Shown here piece after piece: positions 2,183 through 60,929 of a stretch of DNA of 64,000 nt; position 1 is the first letter of the stretch, and each line of letters starts with the position of its first letter. The stretch spans positions 32,001-96,000 of IMG/VR virus record IMGVR_UViG_3300028833_005986. One strand, given 5' to 3'. The notes beneath the pieces were generated by a model. That model was given only the letters and a program-made list of their open reading frames with translations. It did no database searches and was not told the DNA's origin. The DNA comes from a virus. Taxonomy: Duplodnaviria; Caudoviricetes. The translations under genes and the position numbers were made by a program.

Positions 2183-5100
2183 TTATTGATCTTCTTCAAA
2201 CATTTTTTCGCTTACTAAATCATTATACAGTTTATTTTCAAGTTTTTTTCTAGCGTCTCCGTCCTCAACGGTATTTTGCTTTTCAATAACCCATTTAGGC
2301 GGATATTTATATATAGAAGTTTTTATTCCATTAGCATATTTAGTTTTAGCAGCTTGTCCCATAGATGCTTGCATAAAATTTATATATGTTTCCATTATAC
2401 CTTCTATAGTAATTCCTGTATCTCCGTTTCTTCGTTCTTTCCCGCGTTCATTAGCAGCCATATTATACCACTTAGATATAAATGATTTAGGAGTTCTAAT
2501 ATAAGCTAAACCATGACACAATTTAGCATCTGAACTTTTTAAATATCGTTTTACTTCTTCTTTTATGTCTGATAAATCTTGTAAAGCAGCTAATCCAATT
2601 GAAGATAATAAAGTATTAGCATCACTTACAGCATCTGCGATATACTGTAATTCTTCATCAATATTTATATTTTTAAATACTGTAAGTTTTCCCTTAAAGC
2701 CTTCTGCTTCTGCTTCTACTTGTTCCTTTTCCATTTCTGTATGAAGTTTATTAAAACGATTACTAATATTATATTTACCAGTTCCAAAAAATGCTACAGC
2801 AAATGGAGAAATCCTACCATATTGATCACAACAGCCTTCAATATAAGGCTCGACTCGAGCATGAATTGCTTTTATTTTTTGTAAACCTTCGTCAGTATTA
2901 ATATCAATATTATATAAAGTATTTATAAAATAAAATAATACTGATTGTCGTTTTTTATTATCTAATTCTAATATCGTATTACGTAATCTTTTTTGTATTC
3001 CTAATAAAATTTGTTCTTGTATTTTACCTAATTGATTTATTTTAATTAACCAATTTTTATTTAATTGGTGTAAATCTTTATCATAATAATCGTCTTCATA
3101 TTCTTTTTGAGTATCATATAATTGATTAAATATATTATTATATATCTGTTTTGCGGTACATTTTCCCCATACCGAATCTTTATATATAATATCAATAGAA
3201 TTCGCAATATTAAAACGCTTAAATGTTTTCCATAAATTTATATTTTCTCCGTATTTTATTAATAAGCATGTTTGAGTTTTTGTGCTATTATAAATTTTTA
3301 TATAGAATTGAGTATTTTCTTCTTCTCCAAAATTTTGCATTATTGAATTATTAGCTTCATTTTCATTGTTATCTGGATTTCTTGCTGCTATATTTTGATT
3401 TGATATCCATGTTTGAATTAAGCTATAAATATTATGCGGGTGATTACCGGATTTATTATTTTTTAATAATTTTCTGAATAAATATTAAAATTATATTTTT
3501 AATATTAAAATAAAATATTTTTAATATCTTTTAAAATAGATTTTAATATATTATACTTATATTTATGTATAAGCATAGATTATATCTTTATATAAAAATT
3601 ATATAAATAAAATTCAACAAAAATATTTACTATATATAATCGTTATATTATTTATTATAAATTTATAATGAATAATTATGAATTTTAATATAATTATTAT
3701 ATTTTCATAAATTATATTAATTATGCTACTTTATATATAAATAGCTTCATTAATATCATTAATTCTTTCGGTTGAGCATAATTCATTTATTTGATTTATG
3801 AAACTACCAATACTCGTACGATAGCTAGTTAATAAATTTGATATACGCTGTTTAGGATGCAGTTCTTCCCATGTTGCTATATTATCTTTAATAATTTGTG
3901 TACTAGATTTTAAACTGCATAAATCATCAATCATTTTTCGAAGATATTTTATAACTGTATGCCATCTTTCTGGAGAAAACTTTTTTTTAGCTTGTGCAGA
4001 ATTAGAATCGCGCTTTTTCATATATACGTCATTTAATTTTTGTAAAGTTTCTTCTAACGATGAAAATCCGCCATGTGATAATTCTAAAAAATCATCTAAT
4101 TTTTGATTATTAATTACATTTATAATTTCTCCAAAAGACTGATTCGTTACAGGTGTAATAAAATTATTTTTAGAATTTAAGGCCTTATATTTATTATTAA
4201 AGCATGTGTTACGGTATCTTTGTAATTTACTAGTATTATTTTTAATAGCATCAGTTAATTCTTTTAAAGTAGTAATATCATTTAATATAGGATTATTACT
4301 AAATGTTGAAGCTAAATTTAATGCTAATTGTCTAGCTCGTAAAAAGACATTATTATCGAATTCTTCTAATTTAGCATTTTCTTCAATAGTTAAATTCAAA
4401 TTTAATAAATTACGGCGTATATTAACTATACTACGTAATTGAGAAATAATAATATCAGCTTGTTTTGAAGTTAACTCCTTATCTTTTACGCGTTGATATA
4501 ATTTTTCAATTATATCATTACCAAAATATCTATGACATTCTTCTAAATTAAATTGCTCAATACCTTGTGGATCTAATAATATTTTACGATTATTAACCTT
4601 TTTAATAACATCTGGATCTGTTAATGCTGATTCGTCATATTTATCATAAATATTTGAATTTTTTAAAATTGTATCAAAAATAGCTCTTTTTAAATTATCA
4701 AATAATTGTTGATATTTATTTATATTAATAGATGCAAAGGAATTTAAACCTTCAACTATAGCTTTACGTAATTCGGTATACTGTTCAGATGCCAATGAAT
4801 TAACTTGTACTTGTTGATATTTTTTAAAAAAAATTTCAATTCGTCTTATTAAGGCAAAAAAACCATATACTTTGTTAAGCGTAGCTTCGCTATCTTGTGA
4901 ATCTTTTACGCCTTCTTTATAAATTTTATATATCTGATTAACAATACGTTCTTTATTAACATTAGTATATTCATTATGCGCACGATTTAACCAAGAAAAA
5001 GATGTAGCATAAATTGAATCTTTAATAATTGGTAGTAAATCAGCATAATATTTAGCTTGTTTTAAAAATTGCCTTATAAATCGAGCGAATCGCAATTGAA

Positions 5101-5488
5101 ATATTTCAGGCTTAAATTGCGCTATAGTATCATACCACACTGAAATTACGAACCCACTAACTGCAGAAATATATACATTTCTAAATGCTTTATATTTATC
5201 GTTATTTTTAATATCATTTATAAATTGAAGAACTTTAGAAAATATATTTTTATTATATTTGATTATATTAGCAACATTTAAATTTATATCTGAATTTTCT
5301 TTCGTTGCTTTTATGTAGCTATCAAATAATAATTTTTCTGTTCGCTGCCAATCAACTGGAAATGTATTATTATCAATACCTATATCTTTACTATCTGCTT
5401 TTAATTGTTCAACAATACTTTTTATTTTTTTTCTAATTTCTAAATCAGTATCTTTAATTTTTGAATCAGTTGCCATATTTTTATTCAC
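2183..5488 (-). CDS. large helical hypothetical (possibly virion) protein, spliced from exons 5488-3741 and 3473-2183 (~1012 aa)
   Basis: The frame of 2183..3340 stays open upstream to 3473; the junction GAA GCT AT|A AAA TTA restores one frame (EAIKLLKNNK). Confidence 0.8.
3474..3740 (-). ncRNA. group I-like intron, 267 nt, ORF-less
   Basis: P1 GCTAT/GTAGC with U.G at the splice site; R ATAACGATTA, S AAGATATAATCT; ends ..TTCAG; in-frame joining. Confidence 0.85.
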
Positions 5489-5526
5489 TTCTCCTATATA
5501 AATTTATAAATTTTTTAAAATTATAA

Positions 5527-22616: not shown

Positions 22617-24972
22617 TTAATGCCTCAACGGCTTTAAATTATAATCTAATAAATTCATAGGAAACATTTTTATATTAAACGCTGGTTCTTGCTTATATAA
22701 TCTATTACGTACTTGAGCTTGCCGTAATAACATTGGAGTAGAATCTCTAAAATCATACACAAATGCTCTATTTTTACCTTCGCATTTACGAAGTACACGG
22801 CCAATTCTTTGTAGAGCACGTGTAGATGATTTTCCTCCTCCTGCAAGAATCAGACAATCAGCTGATGGAATATCCAAACCTTCATCTGCAATAGTAGTAC
22901 AAATTAGAATTTTGCATAATTTTTCTCTGAAAGCTTGAATAGTAGCATTTCGTTTTAAAGAAGCATCACTACCTGATAAAAATTCTATTTCACTAACTTT
23001 AGCTGGTAATTTTTTATTACTACCAGTTTTTGATGCTTCAATCATAAATGCTTCATTACTAATATATTGTTGTAATAATCTTAAAATCATTTCACCATGT
23101 TCTATACGCTGAACTAAGATTAATATAGTTGCATTCTTTGCTTTACGCATTTGATAAGCAATTTTTACTATATCCATATTACGTTCACGATTACAAACAA
23201 TAGCTTCACGATATAGATCATTATAATTTTTTTGTGGAAATACTCGTTGATGCTTTACCCAAAAAATATCACAAGGCGTTATATAGCCTTGATTTATTAA
23301 TTCACTAGCTGTAACTTTATTATTAGGCAGCGGCCGGGCACATATAGCATCAATTAATAAATCAGAATTATCTGACCTCCACGGAGTGGCAGAAACTCCA
23401 ATACGATAATAAGCATTTACACACCATTTACTTACATCATTTAAAGTATTACATGGTAAATGATGACATTCATCAAATAATAATAATTTAGTATCTTTTA
23501 CCATTTCTTCTGTAGCTGATTGTGCAGAAAAAACAGTAATATCTTGTACATCTCTTGTTCCACCACCAACTAGACCAATCGGTTCGCCTAAAAATTTTTC
23601 AAATTCACTTTTTAATTGAGTACATAAACTAATTTGATTTGCAAAAATTGAAACTGGCTTTACATTAAATTTTGCAACTAATCCTGCCATCATTAATGTA
23701 TTATGTGTAACAATAAAATCTTTACATATAAATGTATGCTTAGGAGAATCAACAGTAATACATTTCATTTCCTTTTTTATATTTAATTTTTGAATATTAA
23801 CAATTCTTAAAGTATTAATATTTAATATTTGAAATATATTATTACCTTGTTTAGAAACACGATATCCTAATGAATATAATAAAAACTTAACATAATTCAT
23901 TAAATTATCATTATAAATATAAACATGATTTTCATCTATATAATGTGCTTGCATTAATCCTTTTAAAAAAGCTGTTCGTTCATCAACAGATGAATAAAGA
24001 TAATTTTTAATATTATATTGTTTTAATATATCGCGATTATTTTCTCTATTAACTAAAAATCCAAAATCATATGGAGATAATATAAAATATCTTCGATAAT
24101 ATTGAATTGGCTTATTAACTGGAATTTGCATATCTATAACTAAATCTTTACATGCAATAATTTGTTCTTCTGATCCATTAATAACTTTCCATAAATGATC
24201 TTGACAACATTCTATTTTAGTTGCATCAGCAAAAGTAATTTCATATATTTCTTTTTCGCCTTGATAAAATTCTTTTAATACTCTTGTTTGGTTGCCATCT
24301 TCATCATATACTATACTACCAGGATGAATATCTTCTAACTTAACCCACCCGTTGGGTGTAAGAATATTCGTATCTAATGGCATTGCTTTACCCAAATTTA
24401 TTATTATAAATAAAATTTATACTATTTATTAAAATATTTTAAAATAAATAGGTTAGTATATATCTTCTTTATTAAAGTTATAATTAATATACGTTGATAT
24501 ATTAATAAAAATTTTTATTAATATATTCTGATTATTATATTTTTCAGAAATAATTATAATTAAGTAGCAATAAATTACTACTAGTTGCAGCTTGAATAAT
24601 ATCTCTCGGACGACAATTATCTATAATTTTTTGCTGATAATCTCTAACTTTTAATTCTTGAGTTCTTTCTTTATCTAAATATTTAACTAATGAATAATCA
24701 GCATTCGGTTGCCAAGCAACTCTTTTATCAATAATTTTATATTCTTCTTTATTTTCTTCTAAAATTTCAATAATATAATCTAATAATCCGGTATAACTCT
24801 TTTTTGTAATACGATTAAATAAATGTCTAACTTGTGGAATTGAATTGGGATTATATTCTTGTATTTCAAAAGATAATTTATCCCAAATTTTAAATTCTAT
24901 ATTATTACTTGCATATTTTACTTCTACATATACATTATCTATGTGCAATTCAATCAAATTCATCACTTCCAT
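22617..24972 (-). CDS. SF2 (UvsW/ResIII-like) helicase, spliced from exons 24972-24577 and 24392-22617, containing an intein
   Basis: Q motif VRDYQQ; Walker A AATSS|GK[intein]T; DECH, SATP, QRIGR. Confidence 0.92.
23700..24386 (-). mobile_element. class 3-type intein (229 aa, Ala1...His-Asn/Thr) with degenerate LAGLIDADG remnant
   Basis: AMPLDTNILTPNGW N-terminus; DHLW (Trp), MKCITVD (Cys), VTHN|T (Thr) give the WCT signature; eroded YLYSSVDERTAFLKGLM block. Confidence 0.9.
24393..24576 (-). ncRNA. group I-like intron, 184 nt, in helicase Walker A
   Basis: P1 AGTAGT/GCTACT (U.G); R TCAACGTATA, S AAGATATATACT; ends TTTG; joins AGT AGT|GGT AAA. Confidence 0.9.
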
Positions 24973-35686: not shown

Positions 35687-36686
35687 TAATTATATTGTTC
35701 TAATAACCATAATGCATCAACTTTTTCATTAATAAATCTATTTCTTAATCCATTAATTACACTTAAATTATAAGCGTGACAGAAATTATAAGTTGATCGA
35801 TAATATCCTAAATTATAATCCCAATATACAGAATCGCATTCACCAATTAAAAAGTTATAAATTTCAATAATAATATCATTATCAAAATATGCACTATCAA
35901 TATAGGATAAATTAGGATATTCAAATATATCTTCATTTACATATTCTAATAAGCTAATACATCCAGAATTGCCATTTTGAATCGCACGAGCAAAAATTAC
36001 ACTTTGCATTGCAAATGAATGTTTATCTATATTAAAATATTTAACTTTTAAACGCTGTAACACAGGATAATAATATTGACTTAATGCAAATTCATCTTGT
36101 AGCTTTTCAAAATTACCGGGATCAACATTACCTAATTGCTGCCACAATTTAATAAATTTATTACTATTAATAGTATACTTATTTAATTCTTTACCATAAT
36201 TCGCTAATCGAGGGTGTGAATAATTACATAACCATTGTACAAATTCATCTACTACTCCAACGGTAGATGAGAATTGATATTTCTAGTATATTTATTCAAT
36301 TTTTCTTTAAAAAAATTCTATATGTAATTAAATTATATTAGAATTTATTTGAAGAAAAATTGAATAAAATTATTAATCTATTTATATGAAATTAAATAGC
36401 ATATGACTATATCTTTATTAAAAGACTTTTAATAAATTTCGATATAATTAAATATATTTACTTATAATTAGTCGTTAGATAAATATTTATTATATTAATA
36501 AATATTTATTATTGATATATTAAATATTAATTATATCAATAATTATATATTATATTAATAGCATTAATATTTACCATAAGATTGTCCACCAATATCTCCA
36601 TAACCAGTAGAAACAAATCCTGGTCCGCGGCCAGAAGTTTCATATTTATTAATTAAATATGTAATAATTGGAATATATTCATTCAT
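35686..36686 (-). CDS. peptidoglycan hydrolase (VgrG3 C-terminal-like muramidase), spliced from exons 36686-36573 and 36282-35686 (236 aa)
   Basis: Spliced motif KYETSGRGPGFVSTGYGDIGGQSYG|KYQFSSTVG; later F..LQ.EF....YY.P, ARAIQNG, GLRNRF.NE. Confidence 0.85.
36283..36572 (-). ncRNA. group I-like intron, 290 nt
   Basis: P1 ATGGT/GCTAT (U.G); R CTAACGACTA, S AAGATATAGTCA; ends CTAG; restores the SYGKYQ motif. Confidence 0.92.
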
Positions 36687-36688
36687 TT

Positions 36689-36856: not shown

Positions 36857-36868
36857 TAAATCTCCGCA

Positions 36869-37267: not shown

Positions 37268-40200
37268 TTAAAATGTTAATCTCCATGTACACTAAATAAT
37301 ATTGGACTATATAATTAATTAATAAAGTTATTATAGTCTCTGAAGAATATACAAATTCTTACTGATTAAATTATTATTAATTACTTTCAGTAATTTAAAC
37401 TTTTTATATAACTACTACATATATTAAATAGTTAATCTAGAACTTGCGTCTTTCTAATATATTATTATTTTAGCATATACTTAAAATATCTTATATATTT
37501 TATATAAGTTTAGATTATATCTTTTATATAATTAAATATAAACTATTATTATAATCGTTGTATATATAAATTATTCTTATATAATTTATATATTACTAAT
37601 TAATATTATTAATAATATTTTTAGTAAATAAATAATTTACGGAACAAAAATCTATTATAAGAATATAAAATTTTTATAATAATAAAAAACATCGTTCCAA
37701 ACTGGAAATACTTTCATTATTTTTTATTTGGACTATATCATATATAAAAATTATTTATATTAATATTACTAGTCTCTGATATGATTAATAATCATATACT
37801 GATTTATTTATTAAAAATAAATATTCCAGTAATTTTATTATTTTATAATCGTAAAGTATTTAAAATATAATCAAAATTTTATCAGCGATTGAACATATAA
37901 CCAGTATCTTTTCCAGCTCCATTTTCCCAGGCAGAAGCATTTCCGCCAAATATAGCCATTTCAGTAATTGGACCTACAGCTTCATCTTCATTAAATGTTG
38001 TTACTAATTTTAGAATATTCGTATTATAATCTTGCTGATAATTTTTAAAATATCTTCTCATCTTAAAAATTCATACCAATTAAGCTCTCTTGTTATTATA
38101 TATGTACTAATATATAATCAAATCAATCTACACTTCGCAGCGTATTCTAAAATCAATTCAATATATACTTATCTCTTATATATATCATAATCAATTCTAT
38201 ATTGATTCTTGAACTCTAATTCGTATTGGCGCTACCAGCGCACCTCTACAGTATAAAGTAGATATATCTTCATATAAATTATGTATATCTCGACTTTCTA
38301 TTAAGTCTTCATAAGATATCTTTCTACTTATAACCTTACCTTTATTTAACTGTTTTATTTTTTTATATTCTTTATTTAATAAATATTTCTTTAATATATT
38401 CAAAGATCCATTCATATCTGCATTTATTAATATACCATTCTTGGACTTATAAAGTCCTCTCTTTATTCTCTTACCTGCAAAGTGTTTCTTTTTTAATTCT
38501 ATCTTATCATTTATTGTTCTTAATACATATCCTAATTTTTCATCTTTTTTATATGATAATATATAATCATTATCTAAGAAAGAAGCTTTAGATGTAAATG
38601 ATTCTTCTTGAAGAACAAATTTAATATTATTCATCTTACATCTATATTCTAAATTATCTTTTATCTTACTAAATGGTATACTAGTAAAGAATTGATTATT
38701 TTTCTTACCTAAATTAGATTTTCTTTGAAAGTCATTGTTCCATCCTAATATAATAATTTTTATATTATTTTGTAAAGAATAATCTATTAATTTTTTACAA
38801 ATCTTATGGATATAATAATTAACTTTATTATTTCTTTTCTTTAATATATTATACATCTTTTTTGTATATCTTAATTTTTTATTAGTATTTTTCTTTTGTA
38901 ATTTACTAATAATTCTATTATATCCTTGATTTATAGATTTCAATTCTTTACCATCTAATATAAAACTATTAATTTTTTTCTTAGAATTATGATTATAATT
39001 AATACAAGTCATTAAATTATTAATGCCTAAATCAATTGATAAATAATTATTATTAACTTGTATATTATCATTAATTTCTATTTCATAGGTATAATGAATT
39101 TCAAAAATTTTACCTTTATATTTAGGAATTACTTGAATATATTTTATTTTTTTATCTTTTAATATAGCAGGTATTTTTATTCTAAATCTATCTTTACTTT
39201 TTAAAGTTAAATTATATTCTTTTAATATTTGATAACTTAGAGGAATAATCCATTCATTATTTTTATTTATATGAATTTTATTAGTTGGAAGTATAAAATA
39301 ATCATTTTTGTCTAAATATTTAGGAATATTACATTTTAAACCTTTTTGTTTTAAAGTGAAGAAAGATTTAAAATTTTCATCTATTATATATAAGATATTA
39401 CAACTACAATTAGCTTCTAATAATTTATAATTAATATTATTTTTAATACTATGATAATTATCTATATAATTTAAATATTTACCAATATTAAAGAAATATT
39501 GTCTAATATTATATAGAGCAGAATTATATAGATTTTTACTATATTTACATAATTTTTTAAATAATATATATAATTGTTTATATTTATATATACTGACTTG
39601 TTGTTTAACAGTTAAATAACATTTTTCTTTTTTATTGATATTATTTTTAAGATTTCTACTAATAATAATAATTCACATCTTTTTAATATTATAAATTTTA
39701 ATAATATTAACAGTTTAAATAACTATTAGTAATAGGATTAGATATTTTAAAACCTATTAAGCTTTGATTTTAATTAAAGCATAGATTATATCATTAATAT
39801 ATAAGATATATAATTAATGATTCTATAGAAATATACAATATTAATCGTTAGATAGATATATATTGATAAAATATATATTTATTATTGATCTATTATAAAA
39901 TTATAAATATTCCAATAAATAATTAAATTATCAAACCATTGTATGGTTCATCGTTTTCATCAACAAAACACCACGAAGTAAATTTCTTACGATATAATTC
40001 ACCTACTAATCTAGTATCAGTTAATTGTGCTTTATGTTCCACCTCTGGATCCATAATATCCCATAATACTGTATTAACTTTATTATTTACACGGTCATAT
40101 GGCTGATCTTCGTGTTCGAGAATACCAACGCCAACAGCTAAAACCTGTAAGCCTGTAATTTTTTGAATATCACTAACAGTAGTACCAGTTTCCGATTCCA

Positions 40201-40570: not shown

Positions 40571-42162
40571 TTATATAGCTAACAAATTAATAAATTCAAG
40601 TTCTTTACGTAATTGCTTATTTTCTTCTATTAAAGCTTCAATTCCTTTAGTATGAATATCCATATTATCTTGAGTATCTTTTACATAAGTATTAAAATTA
40701 CTTAATTGTAAATATTTCGTATTTAATTCATTCGTTCCTAAAAATGCTTGATAGCGCTGATCTTGTATATCATTCCAATAAATTACATTAGCAAATTTAC
40801 CGTCTAATGATACTCTATCGGATATAGAACTAAAATTTTGCCAATTAATTGCTCCATAAATATTATGATAAGCATTATAGCCGGTTGTGTTTAATCTAGC
40901 GACTTCAAATAAAGGTATTGCATAAACATATCCATCCATAGTATTAAAGATATTCATAGTTTCTGCGCCTTTACCTGCAATAAACATATGCGGGTCATTA
41001 AACGGTTCAAAATCAGCCGTAGTATATATATAATCTAAATTATCATAAACTTTTGGACCTTGCTGATATTTTTTAAAATATCTTTTCGTATTTTAAAAAT
41101 TTATTAAGCTTTAATGATTTAGTTAAAGCATAGATTATATCATTAATATATAAGATATATAATTAATGATTCTATTAGTATATACCTATAAAATTAATCG
41201 TTAAATATATATTTATTATTAATAAATATATATTATTGATCTATTATAATGGTTTATAAATATATCAATAAATTTTAAATTAATAATCCCTTATAAGGAT
41301 GTATATCTAAATCTTCAATACGATTTTTACCGTTATCATAATGTAATTCATGTTTATCTTCAATTGCTCTAATACACCATTGTAATTGAATTCTAGTTGT
41401 GCTGGGAATAGAAATACGATGATCAATCATTTCAAATGCTACTGAATCATTAGCTATACCACCAAATAAAGGAATGTCATCTCTAAATTTAATTTCTTTA
41501 AACCAAAATTCTAATATTACTAAATCTTGGCGTCTAACAGATGTAGCTGTAGGTGGAGGTAAATATACAACTAATCCATCGCGTTTACTTGATTCAATTC
41601 TTACAATATGTCCATGTAAAACTGCATGAAATGGATTAATAATAAAATTATTTAATTCTAATTGTGAGCCAATAGTACTAGCATCTTGAATAATATGATC
41701 ATGTTTATCTCTAATTAAAAATTGATGTGCTTTATATGCGCCTAATTCATCAGTATTAGCATTATTTGAAATTTGTAAGCATCCTGAATGCGTCATAGTT
41801 CTAATTAATTTTGCTCGTTCTTCAATCTGAATCCATTGAAGTTCCTTTATATATTTATATATTTAAATATACTTTTTAAATACATTTTTATTAAAAGTCT
41901 TAAAATAAAAATGGTTAGACTATATCTTTTTTTAAAAATAAAAATTATTATATAGTCGTTGAATATATAGATTTTTATATAAAAATTTATATATTACTAA
42001 ATAAATTGATTATTTTTAGTAATTAAATAATTCGATTGGAACAAATTTATTCCATTCATCTTCAATTAAGAAAGCATCTGATCCACCTTTTAATGACAAA
42101 AAATTAACAGTAGGATCAAATTTACCTTTCGCATTTCGTGAAAAATCAGGAAAATATGCCAT
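40571..42162 (-). CDS. virion structural protein, 3 exons (42162-42049, 41844-41287, 41062-40571; ~387 aa), paralogous to the N-terminus of 27189-31424
   Basis: IEDEWN|ELQWIQ, RQDLVILEFW, STTRIQLQW, YAIPLFEVARLN, DGKFANVI..NDIQDQR. Confidence 0.82.
41063..41286 (-). mobile_element. 224-nt tnpB-less intron of the same family as the IStrons
   Basis: Shares the 5' core (ATAATAGATCAATA, TAACGATTAA, AGAATCATTAATTATATATCTTATATATTAATGATATAATCTATGCTTTAA) and the 3' end (AGATATTTTAAAAA.TATCAG). Confidence 0.85.
41845..42048 (-). ncRNA. group I-like intron, 204 nt
   Basis: P1 TGGAAT/GTTCCA (U.G); R TCAACGACTA, S AAGATATAGTCT; ends AAAG. Confidence 0.92.
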
Positions 42163-42301
42163 TTACCTTTATTCACCTCAAATAGTATATTTATTTTTTG
42201 AAATAAATATTTTTATTTTCTTTACAATGAATTTTTATTTTTTACAAAGAATTTTTTTCTTTATAAAAAATTTTATTTTCTTTTCTTTATAAAAATAGAC
42301 T

Positions 42302-43003
42302 TTAATCTAGCATAAACAAATACGGATATACATTATTTAATAATACTGTTATTAATTCTTCATATGATTGAGTATTATTTATATCGTTTTTTAATTTATC
42401 CGGTATATTTTTTATTTCACTTATATTAATTAAAAAATATTTTATATTAATTAAATCTTGTTCTGATAATTCTCTATCTATATAGAAATGAAATAATGAA
42501 GTTAATATATCTTTATTATCAATTTTAGATTTTTCAATCTTTTCATTTTCTATTTTAGATTGTTCTTGAGCATTTATTATTTGTTCTTTAATACTATTAC
42601 TAATTATTTCATTTAAATCAGATGAATAAATTCGTTCTGAGTTAAAATATTGATCCATTTTAGAATCAATATCTTGACTTATTTGCATTTTTATATTATC
42701 TAATTTATCAAATATAATTTGATTTATATTATCAGATTCTTTATTCTTTTCTTGTATTGGAAATTTAGTATTAATATTATTTATAATTTGATGATTAATA
42801 CTATGATTACTTTTCTTTACAGTATATTTATTTTTTGGTAAAGTAACCAATTGTATATCATTATCTTCAATAATATTTAAAAAGCCGCTGGAAATTAATT
42901 TTTTATATGGATTTAAACTAATACTTCTAATTTCTTCCCCAGGCTTTATAAATTTTCCTAATATATCTAGTGTATTATTTGATACATTTTTTAATTTATA
43001 CAT
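42302..43003 (-). CDS. hypothetical protein
   Basis: ORF track. Confidence 0.7.
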   Translation of the reverse strand: MYKLKNVSNNTLDILGKFIKPGEEIRSISLNPYKKLISSGFLNIIEDNDIQLVTLPKNKYTVKKSNHSINHQIINNINTKFPIQEKNKESDNINQIIFDKLDNIKMQISQDIDSKMDQYFNSERIYSSDLNEIISNSIKEQIINAQEQSKIENEKIEKSKIDNKDILTSLFHFYIDRELSEQDLINIKYFLINISEIKNIPDKLKNDINNTQSYEELITVLLNNVYPYLFMLD

Positions 43004-43021
43004 TTTTAATCAACTACGCTT

Positions 43022-44620: not shown

Positions 44621-44701
44621 TATACATCACTTTTTAATATATTTTTTATATATAAAGAAAATAAGTAGAAAATTTATGTAGTTAGAATGTGGTGATGATT
44701 T

Positions 44702-45276
44702 GTGGAAAACTGCCTTCTACTTTTAGCATGTCTATTATTTTCTTTTGCAGGTAATTTAATTCAACAAATTTATAATAATAAAGTATATTCATCTATTCAA
44801 TCAATGCTATATCATGCATTAGTATCATCCGCGGCTGGATTTATTTTTTCCTTAATATTAAGTGAATTTATATTAAATCCATTATTATTAATTTTTTTAT
44901 CTGGCGTTGGCGGATTTTTAGGCATAACTTATAGAGTGTCTAATAATTAATTTAATTTATTAAAATAATTTTTATAAAATTGATTAATATTATATTAATA
45001 TATGATATTAATATAATTAACGACTAATTATATAAAAAGTAGATTTTATTGAAAAAATATAATGTAATTATATAGTCTTATACTTATATGAATAATATAA
45101 GCAAATATATTAATCAAGGATTAACATTTATTTTACAGCATAAATTTAATATTGAACTTAACGATTTATTACACAAAAACAATACACAGTATATGTTAAT
45201 ATATAATAATAGCATATTAAAAATATTACAGCAACCACATAAACATATACATTTACAAATTATAAAAAAAGAATAA
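44702..45276 (+). CDS. holin-like membrane protein, spliced (exon 44702-44925 + exon from 45102 or 45120)
   Basis: Three hydrophobic segments, LSGVGGFLG motif; both candidate 3' sites join GGC AT| in frame with 45088..45276. Confidence 0.65.
44926..45119 (+). ncRNA. group I-like intron, 176 or 194 nt (3' end G45101 or G45119)
   Basis: P1 TTAGGCAT/GTGTCTAA (U.G); R TAACGACTA, S TATAGTCT. Confidence 0.82.
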
Positions 45277-45300
45277 TATAAATAAATATATTATTCTTTT

Positions 45301-45576
45301 TTATTTAAATCGCATATTATTTAATATAATTTCATTAACATTTGTTAAGTTATCATTATTAACAACAAAATAAATATCATTACCCCAAACTTTAAATATA
45401 GAGTTGCAATTAGGACATATTTTAAATCCAGAGTCTTTTTCTAAATGATATAATGATTTACATATTGGACATTTATTAGCTCTAACTTCTGCTGCATCTA
45501 ATAGCTTCATTTTTTCCATAGGATTAGTTGCAAAACAAGCTTCACAAGTTATATTTTTTAATAAATCTGCATTCAT
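45301..45576 (-). CDS. small zinc-ribbon protein
   Basis: CPIC...CPNC. Confidence 0.7.
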   Translation of the reverse strand: MNADLLKNITCEACFATNPMEKMKLLDAAEVRANKCPICKSLYHLEKDSGFKICPNCNSIFKVWGNDIYFVVNNDNLTNVNEIILNNMRFK

Positions 45577-45649
45577 ATAAAGCTATCTCTCTAATTATAT
45601 TTTTTCTTGATTATACAAAACTATCAATTATATTGACGTATATAATTGA

Positions 45650-47888
45650 TTATATATAATTATCAATTATATTACCAATATAATAATAATTATTATAATT
45701 TAATAAATAATTTTCACTATATGTATTTTCACGATCAATTGTTGTTTTAAAATCGTTTATATATGTTTCAATGTCATCTATACCATTTATACCTTTCATT
45801 GATTTTTTAATATCATCAATCTGAGATTGTGCTTTATGCTGCTGATAATTAATAAATTTATATTCACTAATCTCATTAACTTGATGTATACGTTTATATT
45901 TATTCTGATAATTTTTAAAATATCTTCTCATCTTAAAAATTCATACCAATTAAGCTCTCTACTTCTCAATATATTAATCACTTAATATATCTAAAATCAA
46001 ATCAATCTACACTTCACAGTATATTCTAAAATCAATTCAATATATACTTATCCTTTATATATATCATAATCAATTTCATATTGATTCTTGAGCTTTAATT
46101 CGTATTGGCGCTACCAGCGCACCTCTACAGTATAAAGTAGATATATCTTCATATAAATTATGTATATCTCGACTTTCTATTAAGTCTTCATAAGATATCT
46201 TTCTACTTACGACCTTACATTTATTTTTATTTAACTGTTTTATTTTTTCATATTCTTTATTTAATAAATATTTCTTTAATATATTCAAAGCACCATTCAT
46301 ATCTGCATTGATTAATATACCATTCTTGGACTTATAAAGTCCTCTCTTCACTCTCTTACCTGTAAAGAGCTTCTTTCTTAATTCTACTTTATTATCTATT
46401 GTTCTTAATACATATCCTAATTTTTCATCTTTCTTATATGATAACATATAATCATTATCTAAAAAAGATGCTTTAGATGTAAATGATTCTTCTTGAAGAA
46501 CAAATTTTATATTATTCATTTTGCATCTATATTCTAAATTATCTTTTATTTTACTAAATGGTATACTAGTAAAAAATTGATTATTTTTTCTACCTAAATT
46601 AGTTTTTCTTTGAAAATCACTATTCCAACCTAATACAATAGTTTTTATATTATTAGCTAAGCAATAATCTATAAGTTTTTTACAGGTCTTATGAATATAA
46701 TAATTAATTTTATTATTTCGCTTCTTTAATATATTATACATCTTTTTTGTGTATCTTAATTTCTTATTAGTATTTAATTTTTGTAATTTACTAATAATTC
46801 TATTATATCCTTGATTTATAGATTTTAATTCTTTACCATCTAATATAAAACTATTAATTTTTTTATTAGAATTATGATTATAACTAATACAAGTAAATAA
46901 ATTATTAATACCTAAATCAATAGCTAAATAATTATTATTAACTTGTATATTATCATTAATTTCTATTTCATATGTATAATGAATTTCGAATATTTTACCT
47001 TTATATTTAGGAATAACTTGAATATATTTTATTTTTTTATCTTTTAATATAGCAGGTATTTTTATTCTAAATCTATCTTTACTTTGCGAAGTTAAGTTAT
47101 ATTCTTTTAATATTTGATAACTTAAAGGAATAATCCATTCGTTATTACTATTAATATGAATTTTATGCGTAGGTAATATAAAATAATCATTTTTATCTAA
47201 ATATTTAGGAATATTGCATTTTAATTTTTTTTGTTTTAAAGCGAAGAAAGATTTAAAATTTTCATCTATTATATGTAAAATATTATTACTACAATTAGCT
47301 TCTAATAATTTATAATTGATATTATTTTTAATATTATGATAATTATTATTATAATTTAAATATTTATTAGTATTAAAGAAATATTGTCTAATATTATATA
47401 AAGCAGAATTATATAAATTTTTACTATATTTACACAATTTTTTGAATAATATATATAATTGTTTATATTTATATTTACTAACTTGTTGTTTAACAGTTAA
47501 ATAAAATTTTTCTTTTTTATTGATATTTTTTTTAAGATTTCTACTAATAATAATCAACTACCTTTTAATATTAATATAATAATATAAATAGATAATGATT
47601 ATTAAAAAGTAATAGGATTAGATATTTTAAAATCTATTATACTTTAATATTTAATTAAAGCATAGATTATATCATTAATATATAAGATATAAGATATATA
47701 ATTAATGATTCTATAATAATATACAATATTAATCGTTAGATAGCTATATATTGATATAATATATAGCTATTATTGATCTATTATGAGATTATAAATATTC
47801 CAATAAATAATTAAATTATTAAACCATTATTAGGTTCAGGCATATTAAATAATAACCATGAAGTATCTGTTATATACATATTCATCAT
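45650..47888 (-). CDS. small tail-fibre-associated protein, spliced from exons 47888-47823 and 45904-45650 (106 aa)
   Basis: AGGAGG RBS; MMNMYITDTSWLLFNMPEPNNG|NKYKRIHQVNE in frame. Confidence 0.7.
45905..47822 (-). mobile_element. IStron-like element 2: group I intron core + tnpB + right end/omegaRNA
   Basis: Same architecture and termini as 38035-39934. Confidence 0.87.
46076..47557 (-). CDS. tnpB: IS607-type TnpB RNA-guided nuclease
   Basis: AIDLG, VLGWN, QEESFTSKASFLD, INADMNG; no C4 zinc finger. Confidence 0.92.
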   Translation of the reverse strand: MIIISRNLKKNINKKEKFYLTVKQQVSKYKYKQLYILFKKLCKYSKNLYNSALYNIRQYFFNTNKYLNYNNNYHNIKNNINYKLLEANCSNNILHIIDENFKSFFALKQKKLKCNIPKYLDKNDYFILPTHKIHINSNNEWIIPLSYQILKEYNLTSQSKDRFRIKIPAILKDKKIKYIQVIPKYKGKIFEIHYTYEIEINDNIQVNNNYLAIDLGINNLFTCISYNHNSNKKINSFILDGKELKSINQGYNRIISKLQKLNTNKKLRYTKKMYNILKKRNNKINYYIHKTCKKLIDYCLANNIKTIVLGWNSDFQRKTNLGRKNNQFFTSIPFSKIKDNLEYRCKMNNIKFVLQEESFTSKASFLDNDYMLSYKKDEKLGYVLRTIDNKVELRKKLFTGKRVKRGLYKSKNGILINADMNGALNILKKYLLNKEYEKIKQLNKNKCKVVSRKISYEDLIESRDIHNLYEDISTLYCRGALVAPIRIKAQESI

Positions 47889-53900: not shown

Positions 53901-54777
53901 TTGCATCCGCATCACTTATTTTTAAAGTACGAGAATTTTTTAATGTAGTGGCAGTAGCGGCATTACCAGTAGTATCTATACTAGCTGTACCACTTAATTT
54001 AGTAGCATCTAATGACGTAACAGGAATAGTAATATCTAAAGTACCATTAAATTCTGTAGCTGTACCAGTAGCGGCGCCAGAAAGTGCTATTGTTTTTTTA
54101 TTAGCTAATTTTGTAGCTGAATCTGCATTACCAGTTAAATCAGCTTTAATAGTAGCTGGTAATTTTAAAGTAACATCTGCAGAACCATTAAAAGTACTAG
54201 CAGTACCAGCATTTGTGCTATCATTATCATTAATAACAAAATTTCTAATATTCTTTAATACAGTGGCAGTAGAAGCATTACCATCAATTTCAGCTGTAAT
54301 GGTTTTTGGTAATGTAATAGTACCATTAGCAGAACCGTCAAAATTAATAGCTGTACCTGTATGCGTTTCGCTATTATCTTGAATATTAATAGACCTGCTA
54401 TTAGTTAATGTTGTAGCAGTAGTAGCGTTGCCAGTTAAATCAGCTTTAATAGTAGAAGGTAATTTAAGATTAATATTTGATCCGCCGTTAAAACTAGTAG
54501 CAACGCCTGTATTTGTTTTTGATGCGTCGCTAATAGTAATATCTCTACTAACACTTAAATTACTTGCAGCTGTAGCTGTACCATCTGCGGGAAGAAATGA
54601 ACCTACGATAGAATTATTATAAAATTCAGAAATTTTGCTATCAATTCGATTATCTGTAGCATTTGCAAAATCTGTTATTTGTGAACTTTCAGTTTCTGGA
54701 TGTAATACTTTATATATAGCTTTATTATTCAAATCGCGATCAGCAATTACATGTATTTTTCCTTTAATTTCTGCCAA
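47920..54777 (-). CDS. long tail fibre protein (2285 aa, repetitive)
   Basis: Many GNA.TA.KL...R.I.I.D...G..FDGS.N..I.LP.TI.A repeats; PTAPTA..T..TQ.ATTAF and LDTL.E.A.AI fibre motifs. Confidence 0.9.
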   Translation of the reverse strand: MAEIKGKIHVIADRDLNNKAIYKVLHPETESSQITDFANATDNRIDSKISEFYNNSIVGSFLPADGTATAASNLSVSRDITISDASKTNTGVATSFNGGSNINLKLPSTIKADLTGNATTATTLTNSRSINIQDNSETHTGTAINFDGSANGTITLPKTITAEIDGNASTATVLKNIRNFVINDNDSTNAGTASTFNGSADVTLKLPATIKADLTGNADSATKLANKKTIALSGAATGTATEFNGTLDITIPVTSLDATKLSGTASIDTTGNAATATTLKNSRTLKISDADATNIGAGTSFNGSQAVTIALPGTIKADLTGTADKAIKLTNKRSINISDADNTNAGTAIEFDGSTNGTIKLPSTIKANLTGNADTATNATNDSSGNQINTTYAPLASPELTGTPTAPTATLGTKTTQVATTAFVDNAIKNLIGAAPAELDTLKELADAINNDQDVYNTLNNAITTKQSAHAALTSISNLTTSANQMIYTTASNTYKTAPLTALARNLLDDATASDMRTTIDALGKSEKAASATTADTAAKCTGNAATATTLETGRNINISDSDGSHTGTAFNFNGSSAGTIKLPGTITATIEGNASTATKLANKRSINISDADGTNIGTEIKFDGSNTSTLYIKLPSTIKATLNGNASTATAATKATNDSDDKPINTTYVKKTEGIVDLTLSNQTLTFKRGDNTTGTLTTKDEKMQQSVSTTNSTYPLLASSVVNASTNATTTAIFSKDIKINPNNKSIIASKFVGDLEGTADAAIEDSAGHNIATTYETKANAITGLAISGQTITYTKGNGTTGTITTPDTNTFVTQSVSTTNSTYPILATSTPNATTDQGAKAAIFGKTIKINPSTGTLYATTFSGNLSGNATSATNATNDSGGHNIADTYVAKANAIVGLAISGKTITYTKGNNTTGTITTEDQNVTQTAISIVNSAYPVLFKNSTAVTDTTSGTYFNSAITINPSAGTITAKNFSGLATKATSDSVGNQINTTYAPLASPELTGTPTAPTAAIATNDTQIATTAFAKAAAAAANTDAKVAQNISTVNSTYPVLIAATANATSNISANAAQFGKDIKINPSTGELLATKVTATTFTGNLSGAATSATKDSKNQDIVDTYIKDLSVSGKTITYTKGDGDTGTITTQDTTYSAASGSNLGLVKIGSNITNSSGTISLTKDNVTTALGYTPPTTDTNTHYTTHLVAASANNGTANAVATNGNVHLNVIDDSTVRNAINIKGTGSTTVTASNGVITINSTGTEHEATTSIAGLMSAADKSKLDGITASADAVSFTQTKTSGTEVGKITINGTTTTLYGDTNTDTLMTQNVSTADATYPVLLVSTENASTNRGANTAIFGSGVKVNPATSTLSATNIQATNISGNITPSSINTTTESIAGNLDWITGNRVGAWASNKTFGISGATTIVEYSRDGGKTWIDYGLTDDQKKAIFMELRTTNMFLGKASVKADNSLNNQLRITIMPSGRYVSVNALYIWGSTNGNNWNVTLDWQKFADKDTDTWINLFTEKPLSGWSGNNIIYFNQVQGFNQSASQSGNMYALRMTFKQTTVNASYGSPSLNDIRFYGGNWWFSDHNIVSHNRFYTWDINNNVTFPAGVIAQSFTGSITGNATTATKLATARSINIQDSSGANTGTAISFDGSNTSVLNIRLPATIKASLDGNADTATKLAVAKSISIQDSTAANTGAVTSFDGSSNIILKLPATIKANLTGNADSATKATNDSDNKPINTTYAKLAGAAFTGTVTASTAPLGTKTTQVATTAFVDNAINNLIGAAPGTLDTLEEIANAINKDASVYTTLNNAITTKQSAHAALTSISGLATSANQMIYTTASNTYATTPLTAIARTLLDDADVAAMRTTLSVPSRTGGDASGTWGINISGTAATATNDSNGKKISEHTIEYIVGTQTAVTGAWTGVTKDAALYTGKMIIYKLPYSSSGNATLNLTLSGGSTTGAKAIYRYSTTRLTTQYSANYYVPLIYNGTYWFVLADYDANYYDRIRIANPVATADGAIAAARFVGTTDGIAYKELNAGDTFDIRHPVLFNGSTVADAAALSTSLYWISIGANMQTIVDNASRTFAEKKPVYLKGTLSGNTFTVHSDILTTTAPTSEDGYTYLYVGRSYSTYQMNINLLYNQYWQYVNGEFQPMGINALQALQDIKGQRIDTTYMTKYTYASAVTIAKTTTTSSTTAGAWYTTATTINNISYARRYQINVSNLTANDVVEVELASNTNIARAAGLADFTVSASGCFYLYAKETPSDTFTIRYRIYKA

Positions 54778-54914
54778 AATTCTATCACCTACGATTATGA
54801 TTGTAAAAAAAAATATATATTTTCTTTCATAAGAAAAATATATATTAGAATAAAATTATTTCAACTTATAAAATGCTTAATTCATATAATAATTAATAAG
54901 TGCATATAATTATA

Positions 54915-56142
54915 TTAATTTTTTTTATTTTTATAATATTCATTTTTTATTAACATAAATGAAACTAAAATAATCATTATAATAATAATTAAAATTATAA
55001 AAAATGCATTTATATGTAAACTATTTATAGGATTAGTAATAATATGATGTCTAAAAGTATTAATCTTAGTTATATCTCCTGAATATCTAGCTTGTAATTG
55101 CTGATATAAATTAAATGTTTGCACAACAATTATTTTATGATTTTGTACTTTATTGCCATATATATCAATATCGTCTACGCCAAAAATATCTCCGTTAGGT
55201 GTAATATAAGCTGGTGCGAGAAATTGAATATTTTTAAAAGCTTCTATTCCATATTGATTATATAATTGATGCAAATTTTCTATATCAATTTCTGGAGGAA
55301 TTACAACTCTATTAGGATCGTCACTCGGAAATTCCCAATAAATAAGTCCATCTTTCTGCGATAATAAAGCATTCACTGCGGCTTTAGTAAGCTTAATATT
55401 AGTTTGTTCTTTATAAATTTCACTCCATAAGAGTGGAAATTTTTCTATATTTTTTCTAGCGCGACGTGATTGATTTGCTAATACACCATATCTATTGCAA
55501 ATAAAAACATTATTATTATTATCATCTGCGTTAACGTTAAATAAATATACATCTTTGATAGTTTGTTGCATAATAACAAAATATCTAGGATTTAAATCTT
55601 TATTAGCATTATTATCCAATTCTTCTTGCAATACAGATAAATCTGAATATTGACTTTTAATATTAATAATTAAATTATCTGCTATTAATTTTGCTTGATT
55701 TTTTGCCGCCAAATGATCTTCATATATAATAGATTTAATAAAAGTCCACTCTAAATCATTAATATATTGTGTACGCAATTCTATATTCGAAAAATTCGTA
55801 ACATAATCATTATATATATATCCTATATATGCAGATAGAATAATGAATATTATAATTATACACATTGGCAACAATTTATATTTATTTATCTTAAACAAAT
55901 CATATGGTCTGTAAAATATTTTATTAAAAAATTAATAAAACTATTAATCAATTATTAATTTCTATAATTGCATAGACTATATATTTTTATAACAATAAAT
56001 TTCAATAAAAAATATTTACTATTATAGTCATTACTTATATGATAATTTTAAAATTATCATATAATATTGATAATTTTAAATTAATATACCAATAATCAAT
56101 ATATTTACTGAGGCTATATTAATACCTCCTACATAATTTCAT
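54915..56142 (-). CDS. membrane protein with two TM helices flanking an extracytoplasmic domain; 5' end interrupted by an intron
   Basis: Hydrophobic N- and C-terminal segments; candidate splice ATG AAA TTA TGT AGG AGG T|AT TTG TTT. Confidence 0.65.
55901..56123 (-). ncRNA. group I-like intron, ~215-223 nt (3' end G55901 or G55909)
   Basis: P1 GAGGT/GCCTC (U.G); R TAATGACTA, S ATATAGTCT. Confidence 0.78.
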
Positions 56143-58929: not shown

Positions 58930-58954
58930 TAAAAAATAATTATTAATTTTATAT

Positions 58955-59190
58955 ATAGCAAAATCACGTCAAGCTAAAATTTTAAAAAAGATAATAGCTT
59001 ACGCGCCGACTAATTTTTATTTTTTAAAAATTAACTAGCAATTAATTTACAATATATAGTAATTAATTTATACATAGCGCGATTGATATTCAACGTACCC
59101 AGGATACACATTTCCAGCTATCCACATATCCCAACGGCTTGACTATCCTTTACGTGGGTCATCGCAACCTGCGTGTATCATATGCTCTTC
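58955..59190 (-). ncRNA. unassigned GC-rich structured RNA (~240 nt)
   Basis: Non-coding GC island. Minus-strand stems GATACACG/TGTGTATC, CAGG/CCTG, AATCGCG/CGTGATT, GCGCT/GGCGC, TAAGCTA/TAGCTTG; G.U wobbles favour the minus strand. Confidence 0.6.
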
Positions 59191-59394
59191 TATATATATA
59201 TTAATAATAATATATTTTAAATTAATATTTAATTAATTATCAAATGGAAAAAATTAATTTAAAAAACTCTCTGTATATAAAATAGCATAAATTTGCTATT
59301 TTATTTCGTCTTAAATTGACAATACAATTAGCTTAAAGAATGTTTTTAGAAGAAATTTTTTAGAAGAATATTTTTATATAGAGGTGAATAAATA

Positions 59395-60929
59395 ATGGCT
59401 ATTATTTTAGAAGCTAAAGATGATCTTAATCAGTTTATATTAACAGATTATGAACGCAAACTTATTTATCGCCTCCGCGTTTTACTAAAAGATTTACCAG
59501 ATGATGTTCTTAGAACATTAAATACGTTAGTCGAACAAAATCGCGGAATTAATATTATTAATACTAAACTACATTTTAGAAATTATATTAATTTTTTTAT
59601 GCCGCGAAAAATTATAAAAATTTCAAAGAAATACTAATATATTATTTGAATTATTAATAAAATTATTTAATTAATAATTTCTATATAAGCAACGTATATT
59701 ATTTATAATTAATAAAAAAGAAATATACTAATCTTTTTATATAAAAAGAAAATATATAATAAAATATTTATAAATATAAATGGAACGATGGACAGATCAA
59801 ATGCTAATAAATTACATATATCAATCTTTAGGATATATTAATGCAGCGCCTTTACAAACAGGATATGATTTAACAAATATACCTACAGCATGGGAAAGCC
59901 CACTATTAACCGGTGCAATGGTATTCTCACTTTTAGCAGAAGCTATATTACAGACTGGAAACATCATATAAAATAAATATATTGCTTGTATAGCAATATT
60001 AGTTTTAAATTATTCTCTAGTCAAATAAATTAAAATAATTTCGAGAAATTATTCAATAAATTTAATTCGAAAATATATTATATATATTATATAATAATTG
60101 CAACGCATAATTGAATTTAATATAAACATAAAAAATTATGCTAATCTAAAAAGATAATTTTTAGATAATAATTAATATAATTATTATTTAATACAAAAAG
60201 AAACATTTTCCTATTCAGATAATGGAATCAGTCAAAAATTAAAGGCTGAAATAAAATTTAATTAATTACGAGAATAATATATCTATATTTATTCGTAACT
60301 TATATAAGTTCAAAGACTATATATTAAAATTATTAAAATAAAAAATAGTCTAATTATATAATGCTTTCAATTTCTAATGCTGGACAGTACCAATCTCTAG
60401 CGAACGGATTACTATCCGGCTTTGAGCAACAAATAAAATCTTTAAAAGCATATACAAATATGCTTATACAATTAATTAATTTAATGAAAACACATATATT
60501 ATGTATATATTAAAATAATATTTATTTTTAAATAAATCTTATTTCAGAGCATATAAATATTAATTTATAATAAATGATTTATGCCATTCTATATTAAAAT
60601 TTATAGAATTATATAATAATAAATATATTTTCTTCTTAATTCAAAAAATTTGAGGCCAAATCCGGCTGGAATTTTTCATAAGTTCTTGTATAAATATATT
60701 ATTGCTAAAAATATATATTATATATCAATTAGCATTTATTTAAATATAAATATATTATTTATAAATCAACGACTATATAATATTTATTAATAAAAATATA
60801 GTCTTATTTTAGCATTTGTTAAAAATATTAAATTTATAAATTTAATAAAAAATTCAAAATTGATATGGAGGAATGAATTCAGGAGTCCGAATTCGCTCAT
60901 ATTCCCCGCGAATGTGGGTTTATAGATAA
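59395..60929 (+). CDS. neck/head-completion-like protein, 6 exons (59395-59547, 59783-59960, 60201-60232, 60364-60453, 60653-60672, 60863-60929; 179 aa)
   Basis: Spliced: ..RLRVLLKD..NRG|ERWTDQML..INAAP..LQTG(K/E)TFSYSDNGIS|LSISNAGQYQ..KAY|RPNPAGI|YGGMNSGVRIRSYSPRMWVYR*. Functional label is inferred from the FSYSDNGISL-type motif. Confidence 0.78.
59548..59782 (+). ncRNA. group I-like intron, 235 nt
   Basis: P1 TCGCGG-A / G-CCGCGA (59601-59607); R CAACGTATA, S AATATACT; ends AATG. Confidence 0.82.
59961..60200 (+). ncRNA. group I-like intron, 240 nt (ends uncertain by 1 nt)
   Basis: P1 GACTGG/CTAGTC; R CAACGCATA, S TTATGCT. Confidence 0.78.
60233..60363 (+). ncRNA. group I-like intron, 131 nt
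   Basis: P1 TCAGT/GCTGA (U.G); R TCAAAGACTA, S AATAGTCT; ends AATG. Confidence 0.85.
60454..60652 (+). ncRNA. group I-like intron, ~199 nt
   Basis: P1 AAGCATAT/ATATGCTT; R TCAGAGCATA, S TTATGCC; ends TTTG. Confidence 0.78.
60673..60862 (+). ncRNA. group I-like intron, 190 nt
   Basis: P1 GGAAT/GTTCT (U.G); R TCAACGACTA, S ATATAGTCT; ends ATTG. Confidence 0.85.

Follow-up and report, generated by a model that had tools for sequence, protein, structure and literature searches.

What breaks so many genes of one phage into pieces? The stretch analysed here (the window, 64,000 nt) comprises bases 32001-96000 of the IMG/VR virus contig IMGVR_UViG_3300028833_005986, and coordinates follow window numbering unless marked genome. 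The source is a single contig of 166,990 bp with 22.8% GC, and genes in the window lie mostly on the minus strand. A translated comparison revealed synteny between the genome and Bacillus phage G (region 96-250 kb), with 25-57% protein identity, and many phage G proteins matched it as two to four separated pieces. Judged by its sequence, the phage is a distant relative of phage G from sheep gut (a phage G-like lineage of rumen or gut). Alternative genetic codes were considered as the cause of the open reading frame (ORF) fragmentation and rejected: the code is standard and the gaps between fragments stay. The intervening sequences have boundaries placed at the level of the codon (one of them at the level of the nucleotide), share a conserved core and are present or absent depending on the strain. 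We propose that they are group I introns taken out of the mRNA by RNA splicing, a reading to which we assign a probability of about 0.85; removal at the RNA level and self-catalysis are what we infer from the features described below.

The initial annotation had proposed 17 miniature introns in nine genes, and all were recovered (Table 1). Fifteen contain no ORF and span the same 131-290 nt as first described; they are 8-16% GC (84-92% A+U) and amount to 3,130 nt together, whereas the exons of the gene with five introns are 35% GC. The remaining two are 1.9-kb elements carrying a TnpB ORF. One intron each was found in gene A, a helicase gene and a hydrolase gene, four in gene D (one being a 1.9-kb TnpB element), two in gene E and five in a gene resembling phage G gp165; a small gene contains the other TnpB element, a plus-strand membrane-protein gene has one probable intron and one intron seems to lie in a leader. 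The intron-dense gene architecture proposed for this phage was thus supported. One of the 17, 55909-56123, apparently lies in a leader and not in coding sequence.

Table 1 Intervening sequences in the window, with their R and S core boxes.
Feature	Position	Strand	Length (nt)	R box	S box	Remarks
Gene A intron	3474..3740	-	267	UAACGAUUA	GAUAUAAUC	
SF2 helicase intron	24393..24576	-	184			in Walker A motif, 6 nt upstream of intein
VgrG3-C-like cell-wall hydrolase intron	36283..36572	-	290	CUAACGACUA	AAGAUAUAGUC	boxes as in T4 sunY
Gene D intron 1	38035..39943	-	1,909			IStron-type (element 1), TnpB ORF 38197-39672
Gene D intron 2	37715..37884	-	170	CAGAGACUA	GAUAUAGUCC	
Gene D intron 3	37454..37693	-	240	CAACGAUUA	GAUAUAAUC	between 21-nt and 26-nt micro-exons
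Gene D intron 4	37290..37427	-	138	CAGAGACUA	UAUAGUCC	between 26-nt micro-exon and 22-nt last exon
Gene E intron 1	41845..42048	-	204			gene E encodes a conserved protein of ~387 aa
Gene E intron 2	41063..41295	-	233			tnpB-less sibling of the two IStron-type elements
Probable intron, small membrane-protein gene (44702-45276)	44926..45119	+	~194	UAACGACUA at 45019	UAUAUAGUC	tentative bounds
IStron-type element 2	45905..47831	-	1,927			TnpB ORF 46076-47557; small gene from ATG 47888
Leader intron	55909..56123	-	215	UAAUGACUAU	AUAUAGUCU	upstream of ORF 54915-55898
gp165-like intron 1	59548..59782	+	235	CAACGUAUA	GAAAUAUAC	
gp165-like intron 2	59961..60200	+	240	CAACGCAUAAUU	AAUUAUGC	1-nt boundary ambiguity
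gp165-like intron 3	60233..60363	+	131			smallest of the set
gp165-like intron 4	60454..60652	+	199	CAGAGCAUA	GAUUUAUGCC	followed by 20-nt exon 60653-60672
gp165-like intron 5	60673..60862	+	190	CAACGACUAUA	AUAUAGUCU	last exon 60863-60929

Homologues that failed to align continuously across the predicted junctions had been named beforehand as evidence against introns. The outcome was the opposite: continuous homologues from phage G and metagenomic relatives spanned 13 of the 17 junctions without a gap. Protein searches returned relatives of 43-96% identity only, and the spliced product of the exact strain was not found among them. Excision rebuilt all four motifs that had been predicted (AATSS^GK(intein)T, SYG^KYQ, EDEWN^ELQW and FSYSDNGIS^L; carets mark the junctions). 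Joining ORF 3741-5503 of gene A to ORF 2183-3473 gave a protein of ~1,015 aa, and the unbroken protein P0037 (787 aa) spans this junction (...NEA^I^KLLKNN against ...KYA I KLIKGS). The alignment reaches the last residue of the upstream ORF and continues downstream, with Ile351 of P0037 corresponding to the codon split by the intron. In the helicase, exon 1 ends with ...IIQAATSS, and past the intron come GK, an intein (A...THN) and T, where phage G helicases read AATGAGKTF without interruption. The intein (23700-24386, minus strand; ~229 aa, weak Pfam intein match) starts two codons past the intron in the same Walker A motif (GK^A...THN^T). With intron and intein both placed in this motif, the helicase P-loop would need RNA splicing as well as protein splicing. 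The hydrolase junction GDIGG.SYG^KYQFSS is unbroken in seven lysozyme-like homologues of 233-237 aa. The same holds for both junctions of gene E: P0021-P0028 and phage G paralogues run straight through EDEWN^ELQW (intron 1), and the homologues P0018-P0028, which are 330-388 aa long, through ...DIHP^QGPK... (intron 2).

The shortest exons gave the most detailed alignments. Phage G protein G_132274 aligns on both flanks of gene D intron 1, and its GYMFNY KTFAVWN and KTFAVWN KPSDA segments match the joins at intron 2 (GYMFNR^KVFPVWN) and intron 3 (KVFPVWN^KDASS). The last 23 residues of gene D are spread over exons of 21, 26 and 22 nt encoding KVFPVWN, KDASSRLT(I) and TWRLTF-stop, which align without a gap to KTFAVWN KPSDARLTV TWKLTF-stop. 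In the gp165-like gene (59395-60929), joining exons of 153, 178, 32, 90, 20 and 67 nt gave a 179-aa protein. Phage G gp165, also 179 aa, aligns in order to 59395-59547, 59783-59959, 60200-60232, ~60364-60447 and 60885-60926, and two metagenomic homologues, P0003 (180 aa) and P0001, are unbroken over the same junctions. Phage G gp165, P0001, P0002 and P0003 read without interruption through the join at intron 1 (EQNRG^ERWTDQ), as do four homologues through that at intron 3 (FSYSDNGIS^LSISNAG). The 20-nt exon, encoding RPNPAG(I), matches LRPNSAGIYGGMNS in P0003 and P0004, and the last exon, (I)YGGMNSGVRIRSYSPRMWVYR followed by the stop, aligns with the C-terminal ends of phage G gp165 and P0003. 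Scans of IMG/VR with the gp165-like alignment and with the gene A exon found no relatives.

These alignments bear on the possibility that the insertions are never removed and that the genome is a decaying or defective one, its genes broken by dead mobile elements. Such a view would agree with the absence of any Rfam match to an intron (see below) and with the state of the contig: no terminal repeat was found at its ends, and no homologue of the phage G terminase, portal or major capsid protein was detectable on it despite the long synteny with phage G, so that the complete genome may be larger than the 167-kb contig. Against it, every exon, including those of 20-26 nt, is conserved and in frame, with no frameshift or stop, and excision restores essential motifs such as Walker A. 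The intron cores are also conserved, with compensating changes. Furthermore, near-identical DNA is present in several sheep-gut metagenome runs, and sheep-gut metatranscriptomes contain parts of it; 39% of the sampled words of window 36000-45999 were present in run X4 and 28% in run X5. We therefore regard dead insertions as very unlikely.

Comparison with related strains provided an allele lacking an intron. Two contigs with 85-89% DNA identity (L034 and L035) lack exactly the 233 nt of gene E intron 2, reading CAC CCG^CAA GGG where the window reads CAT CCT^intron^CAA GGT; both retain gene E intron 1. The missing 233 nt follow a pyrimidine and precede CAAGG. The two alleles differ in the exon base directly preceding the intron (41296), which is U (CCU) where the intron is present and G (CCG) where it is missing (L034:1338-1343). 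This synonymous difference provides the U.G pair at the splice site. The gp165-like gene varies too: contig L032 lacks introns 1-3 of the window and has one intron elsewhere, and contig L033 has none. The single intron of the related strain (L032:780-1270, ~470 nt) follows ...SWENQ, a position free of introns in the window. Introns thus vary between close relatives, which indicates that they are gained and lost, as expected of mobile introns.

A clean empty site in one strain, together with the TnpB elements and HEARO (IscB-type) RNAs of this genome, could also suggest another route, namely excision at the DNA level by TnpB/IS-type transposition, or else ribosomal bypassing. However, 15 of the 17 sequences lack any coding content, TnpA was not seen in the elements, and an empty site elsewhere reflects evolutionary mobility, not excision at each infection. 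Known ribosomal bypassing covers ~50 nt (T4 gene 60); the 131-1,927 nt found here are far above known bypassing lengths. The insertions share the features of a ribozyme core instead of those of IS ends, and we consider this route extremely unlikely.

The ribozyme core was recognised from a pair of boxes, R and S, found in all 17 introns. R reads (C/U)A-AC/GA-G followed by 4-6 nt, and S consists of an A-rich stretch, GAUA, the complement and C. In their most frequent forms, CUAACGACUA and AAGAUAUAGUCU, they match the T4 sunY ribozyme (PMC10023712) exactly, an identity over 10-12 nt. By this match, R and S are assigned to the J6/7-P7 and J8/7-P7' strands of the group I core. P7 complementarity is kept in five variants (GAUUA/UAAUC, GACUA/UAGUC, GUAUA/UAUAC, GAAUA/UAUUC and GCAUA/UAUGC). 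A strict R/S pattern returned 21 pairs in the 167-kb genome, compared with a mean of 1.9 and a maximum of 6 in 100 second-order Markov shuffles, and every one of the 21 lies on the local coding strand between exon fragments. In agreement with the initial annotation, which had pointed to these boxes and to a group I-type reading, the match to sunY and the enrichment supported both.

The hairpins at the 5' junctions and the terminal G residues that had been noted were also present, the former as P1 helices with U.G pairs. In ~10 of 16 introns P1 has at least 5 bp and closes with U.G within 12 nt of the intron start, and a terminal G was possible in all 17 while keeping the frame required by homologues. 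Examples with U.G are the introns of gene A (GCUAU/GUAGC, 3' end CAG), the helicase (AGUAGU/GCUACU) and the hydrolase (AUGGU/GCUAU, 3' end CUAG), both introns of gene E (GGAAU/GUUCC, 3' end AAAG; AUCCU/GGGAU, 3' end CAG), gene D intron 4 (7 bp) and gp165-like introns 3 (UCAGU/GCUGA) and 5 (GGAAU/GUUCU). The empty site fixes one of these U.G splice sites, that of gene E intron 2, to the nucleotide. Hairpins were seen at the positions of P4/P5, P6 and P8, and sometimes of P9, and the 80 nt upstream of R (the P4-P6 region) fold with a mean z-score of -2.25 relative to shuffles. In the helicase intron P3, P4, P6, P7, P8 and P9 can be parsed by eye. A covariance model built from this intron alone matched only its closest relatives (genome 160783-160899 and 160413-160523), plus weak partial matches. 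The minimum free energy (MFE) fold of the 131-nt intron shows P1, a P4 hairpin and P7 (GACUAU/AUAGUC), with a z-score of -2.9 and P8 barely visible, and that of the 138-nt intron shows P4, P6 and P7. MAFFT alignments across intron families are structurally unreliable outside R and S.

Several results weigh against this assignment. The covariance-model check proposed in the initial annotation turned out negative: Rfam group I models gave no match, at gathering score or at E up to 10, in the window, the remainder of the genome or a 351-nt stretch enclosing the most canonical intron. A search of 140 kb of phage G with Rfam was equally negative for group I introns. P3 pairing was no better in real introns than in mismatched intron pairs (permutation p ~0.24), and as AU-rich strands pair in any combination, P3 is indistinguishable from chance pairing. 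The 138-nt intron folds no better than shuffles (z-score -0.5). The 5' splice sites outside the U.G group pair as C-G, A-U, U-A, U.U or A opposite G: gene D intron 3 has a C-G pair (GGAAC/GUUCC), gp165-like intron 4 a U-A pair in a P1 of 8 bp, gene D intron 2 a weak P1 (AAUCG/CGAUU) after a 5' exon ending in C, and gp165-like intron 1 a P1 of UCGCGG/CCGCGA after a 5' exon ending in A. At gp165-like intron 2 homologues read QTGE(T/Q)FSYSDNG; a G-ended intron gives K at the junction, and the conserved E is obtained if both sites are placed 1 nt earlier, with an intron that then ends in A. For four of the 17 junctions (both IStron-type elements, the plus-strand gene and the leader intron) no spanning homologue was found. 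Finally, the 100% count of P7 pairing is circular, as the sequences were chosen by that pairing, and was not used as evidence.

If the group I reading is right, the introns would be of the phage IA2 kind, with a sunY-like core shrunk to little else, and RNA splicing would restore every reading frame. P1 would pair the 3'-terminal 5-8 nt of the upstream exon with a guide lying 5-12 nt inside the intron in most cases and ~50-70 nt inside in three. P7 would be flanked by the guanosine-binding strands J6/7 (AAC or AGA) and J8/7 (AAGAUA). Hairpins would occupy the expected positions of P4/P5 and P6, P8 would be short, P2 and P9 minimal or missing, and the last base a G. The introns would be mobile, the same genes in close relatives having fewer introns, none, or introns at other sites, and at least one family would derive from, or have given rise to, IStron-type elements with TnpB in the 3' part.

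Whether RNAs so reduced would still splice unaided is a separate question. Weak-core group I introns often need proteins such as CYT-18, CBP2 or maturases, and the sequences could be group I-derived introns that no longer self-splice, a shared phage or host protein or RNA helper having let the periphery erode and the family multiply. Their 84-92% A+U and helices of nearly all A-U pairs would fit a helper, as would P2 and P9 that are absent or vestigial, the faint P8 of the 131-nt intron, the several 5' splice sites without U.G and the failure of curated models to recognise the introns. Conversely, no candidate helper was identified, the J6/7, P7 and J8/7 strands are conserved as well as in the self-splicing T4 sunY intron, and phage group I introns of ~206 nt were reported to be spliced in vivo with no helper invoked (PMC12880540). 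We consider dependence on a helper possible but, on balance, doubtful. Only tentatively, and with the odds against it, do we suggest that the 131-, 138- and 170-nt introns are working ribozymes below any known self-splicing group I size, or else depend on a common phage or host cofactor. Either case, if true, would explain the tolerance of the phage for ~1 intron per 5 kb, for a 540-nt gene interrupted five times and for exons of 20-26 nt.

The two 1.9-kb elements have the organisation of IStrons as far as their sequence can tell, with a putative group I core at the 5' end and TnpB in the 3' part. In both, the R/S core lies within the first ~200 nt and is followed by the TnpB ORF, and the 3' end is UAUCAG; TnpB is the sole ORF seen in each, and no TnpA transposase was seen. 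Both TnpB ORFs match OrfB_IS605 and the Cas12f1-like TNB domain (Pfam). The elements are 92-94% identical over long stretches, and the core of element 1 is homologous to the tnpB-less gene E intron 2. RNAalifold predicted P4/P5, P6, P8 and a P9-like hairpin for this family, with four compensated pairs. By sequence, three of the 17 introns belong to it; the other 14 share the core motifs and not the flanks. The exons of element 2 join in frame (MMNMYITDTSWLLFNMPEP^NKYKRIHQ...), with a U.U pair at the splice site. For the three TnpB-type introns the initial annotation had placed the 5' site after AAUGGU or AAGGGA; according to the empty site the true position is 9 nt upstream, in the junction hairpin's 5' arm and just after CC(U/A), and the tnpB-less intron is 233 nt long, not 224. 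Sequence alone could not decide between the two because both choices keep the frame. The 5' boundary of element 1 was placed by analogy with the empty site of its sibling. Five full TnpB copies were found (the two in Table 1 and genome 108269-109495, 110502-111848 and 164279-165664), plus one cut by the contig end (genome 166568-166780). Each lies apparently within an IStron-type intron; phage G has one homologue of 413 aa with ~37% identity.

Two further introns differ in their setting. The leader intron has a P1 of GAGGU/GCCUC with U.G and ends with ACAG; no upstream coding exon joins in frame, and the intron apparently lies between a ribosome-binding site (AGGAGGU) and the start codon. The 5' strand of this P1 is the Shine-Dalgarno sequence itself (GGAGGU), and splicing would bring the ribosome-binding site within ~10 nt of the UUG start, so that translation of the downstream ORF may depend on splicing. 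The bounds of the probable plus-strand intron were set only by the best in-frame join, an 8-bp P1 with U.G and a terminal G, and no homologue of its gene was found.

Introns are not restricted to the window. Outside it, strict R/S pairs and split phage G alignments indicated at least 18 further introns, and at least eight additional genes gave fragmented alignments with phage G proteins. Added to the 17 of the window, this leads to an estimate of at least 35 introns in 167 kb, or ~1 per 5 kb, a count from motifs and gaps and not a model-based census.

How do these introns compare with known ones? The sunY (nrdD), td and nrdB (IA2) introns of T4 also interrupt phage protein genes and end in G, and the J6/7-P7 and J8/7-P7' strands of sunY are the same as here. 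T4 has three introns per genome, which are much longer, have full peripheral helices and in part encode endonuclease ORFs; the ORF-less introns of the window are 131-290 nt, ~90% A+U and undetected by Rfam. The Azoarcus pre-tRNA-Ile intron (~205 nt) is the classic minimal self-splicing group I intron, GC-rich and very stable. It shares with the window introns a compact core and few peripheral elements, but these are up to 74 nt shorter and AU-rich, and their self-splicing is only predicted.

The initial annotation had called the set its best candidate for an undescribed system, on the premise that phage introns are few, long and endonuclease-bearing. Published precedents (Jug phages, Zeta-group crAss-like phages, AR9 and MarsHill-like phages, and IStrons) show that this premise is out of date and that the system is not new in kind. 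In 136 genomes of Jug (jumbo gut) phages, 2,513 group I introns are reported (Sci Adv 2026, PMC12880540), on average 18.5 per genome and ~206 nt long, with metatranscriptome support for 37 of 76 tested (PMC12880540). As in the window, many small group I introns interrupt essential genes of uncultured gut phages, alongside inteins and endonucleases. Unlike the present phage, Jug phages carry their ~18.5 introns in 360-402 kb, infect Bacteroides or Phocaeicola, and had their introns found with published covariance models; the estimate of at least 35 in 167 kb is ~4 times that density, and the phage concerned is related to phage G, has 23% GC, packs five introns into a single 540-nt gene and has exons measuring 20-32 nt. 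Up to 14 introns and three inteins, with many intron-split genes, are present in Zeta-group crAss-like phages (Yutin et al. 2021, PMC7886860). Those introns were found via endonuclease domains, in phages with alternative genetic codes, whereas most introns here are ORF-less, the code is standard and the phage is not crAss-like and is syntenic with phage G. Multiple intron-split genes are also present in AR9, MarsHill, Madawaska, Machias and Twort/K-like Staphylococcus phages. There, too, each split gene has at least one intron, exon numbers vary between close relatives and inteins occur in neighbouring genes; however, lineage and host habitat are others, and the split genes of the window are structural, lysis and helicase genes, not RNA polymerase genes. 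IStrons, including ORF B-only and ORF-less forms and non-U 5' splice sites, have been described, also in Clostridium botulinum phages (Tourasse et al. 2014, PMC4227781); the IS607-type group B IStrons BcISt1, and CbISt3 and CbISt4 of C. botulinum phages c-st and D-1873, have target sites that are not U-ended (PMC4227781). The 5' group I core and 3' TnpB (ORF B) recur in the two TnpB-bearing elements of the window, which has a tnpB-less sibling as well, but only 3 of its 17 introns belong to the IStron family. The set is therefore an extreme case of a published kind in another lineage, by its density, its five introns in one 540-nt gene, its 131-nt intron and its being missed by standard models.

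For annotation, the consequence is that ORF callers break at least nine genes of the window and miss all micro-exons; the helicase P-loop, the active-site region of the cell-wall hydrolase and several virion proteins are misread as fragments. As Rfam-based pipelines would flag no intron, phages like this one would be systematically mis-annotated. The introns also offer a panel of sequence-diverse, very small, AU-rich candidate group I cores in 17 exon contexts, with known intron-less alleles, from which a minimal splicing size could be approached. TnpB-bearing and tnpB-less copies, together with the exact empty site in a sister strain, make a case for studying IStron-type spread and decay in phages.

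Further observations concern other parts of the genome. HEARO (IscB-type guide) RNA matches were found at window 84-326 (minus strand; 57.6 bits, below gathering score) and at L003:5580-5793 (minus strand; genome 101580-101793; 113 bits, above gathering score), and show that the genome hosts IscB-type elements next to the TnpB-type ones. In the genome 20171-23644 and 17584-19761 region (L002/L001), a gyrase/topoisomerase II subunit is 1,157 aa long, compared with 823 aa in phage G, with a gapped alignment, and a DnaB/primase-like ORF shows a similar alignment gap; both gaps are probably further inteins. An ORF of 2,311 aa (47920-54855, minus strand), with a weak DM13 match as its only domain match, is 32-35% GC in a genome of 23% GC, a compositional island that may have been acquired separately.

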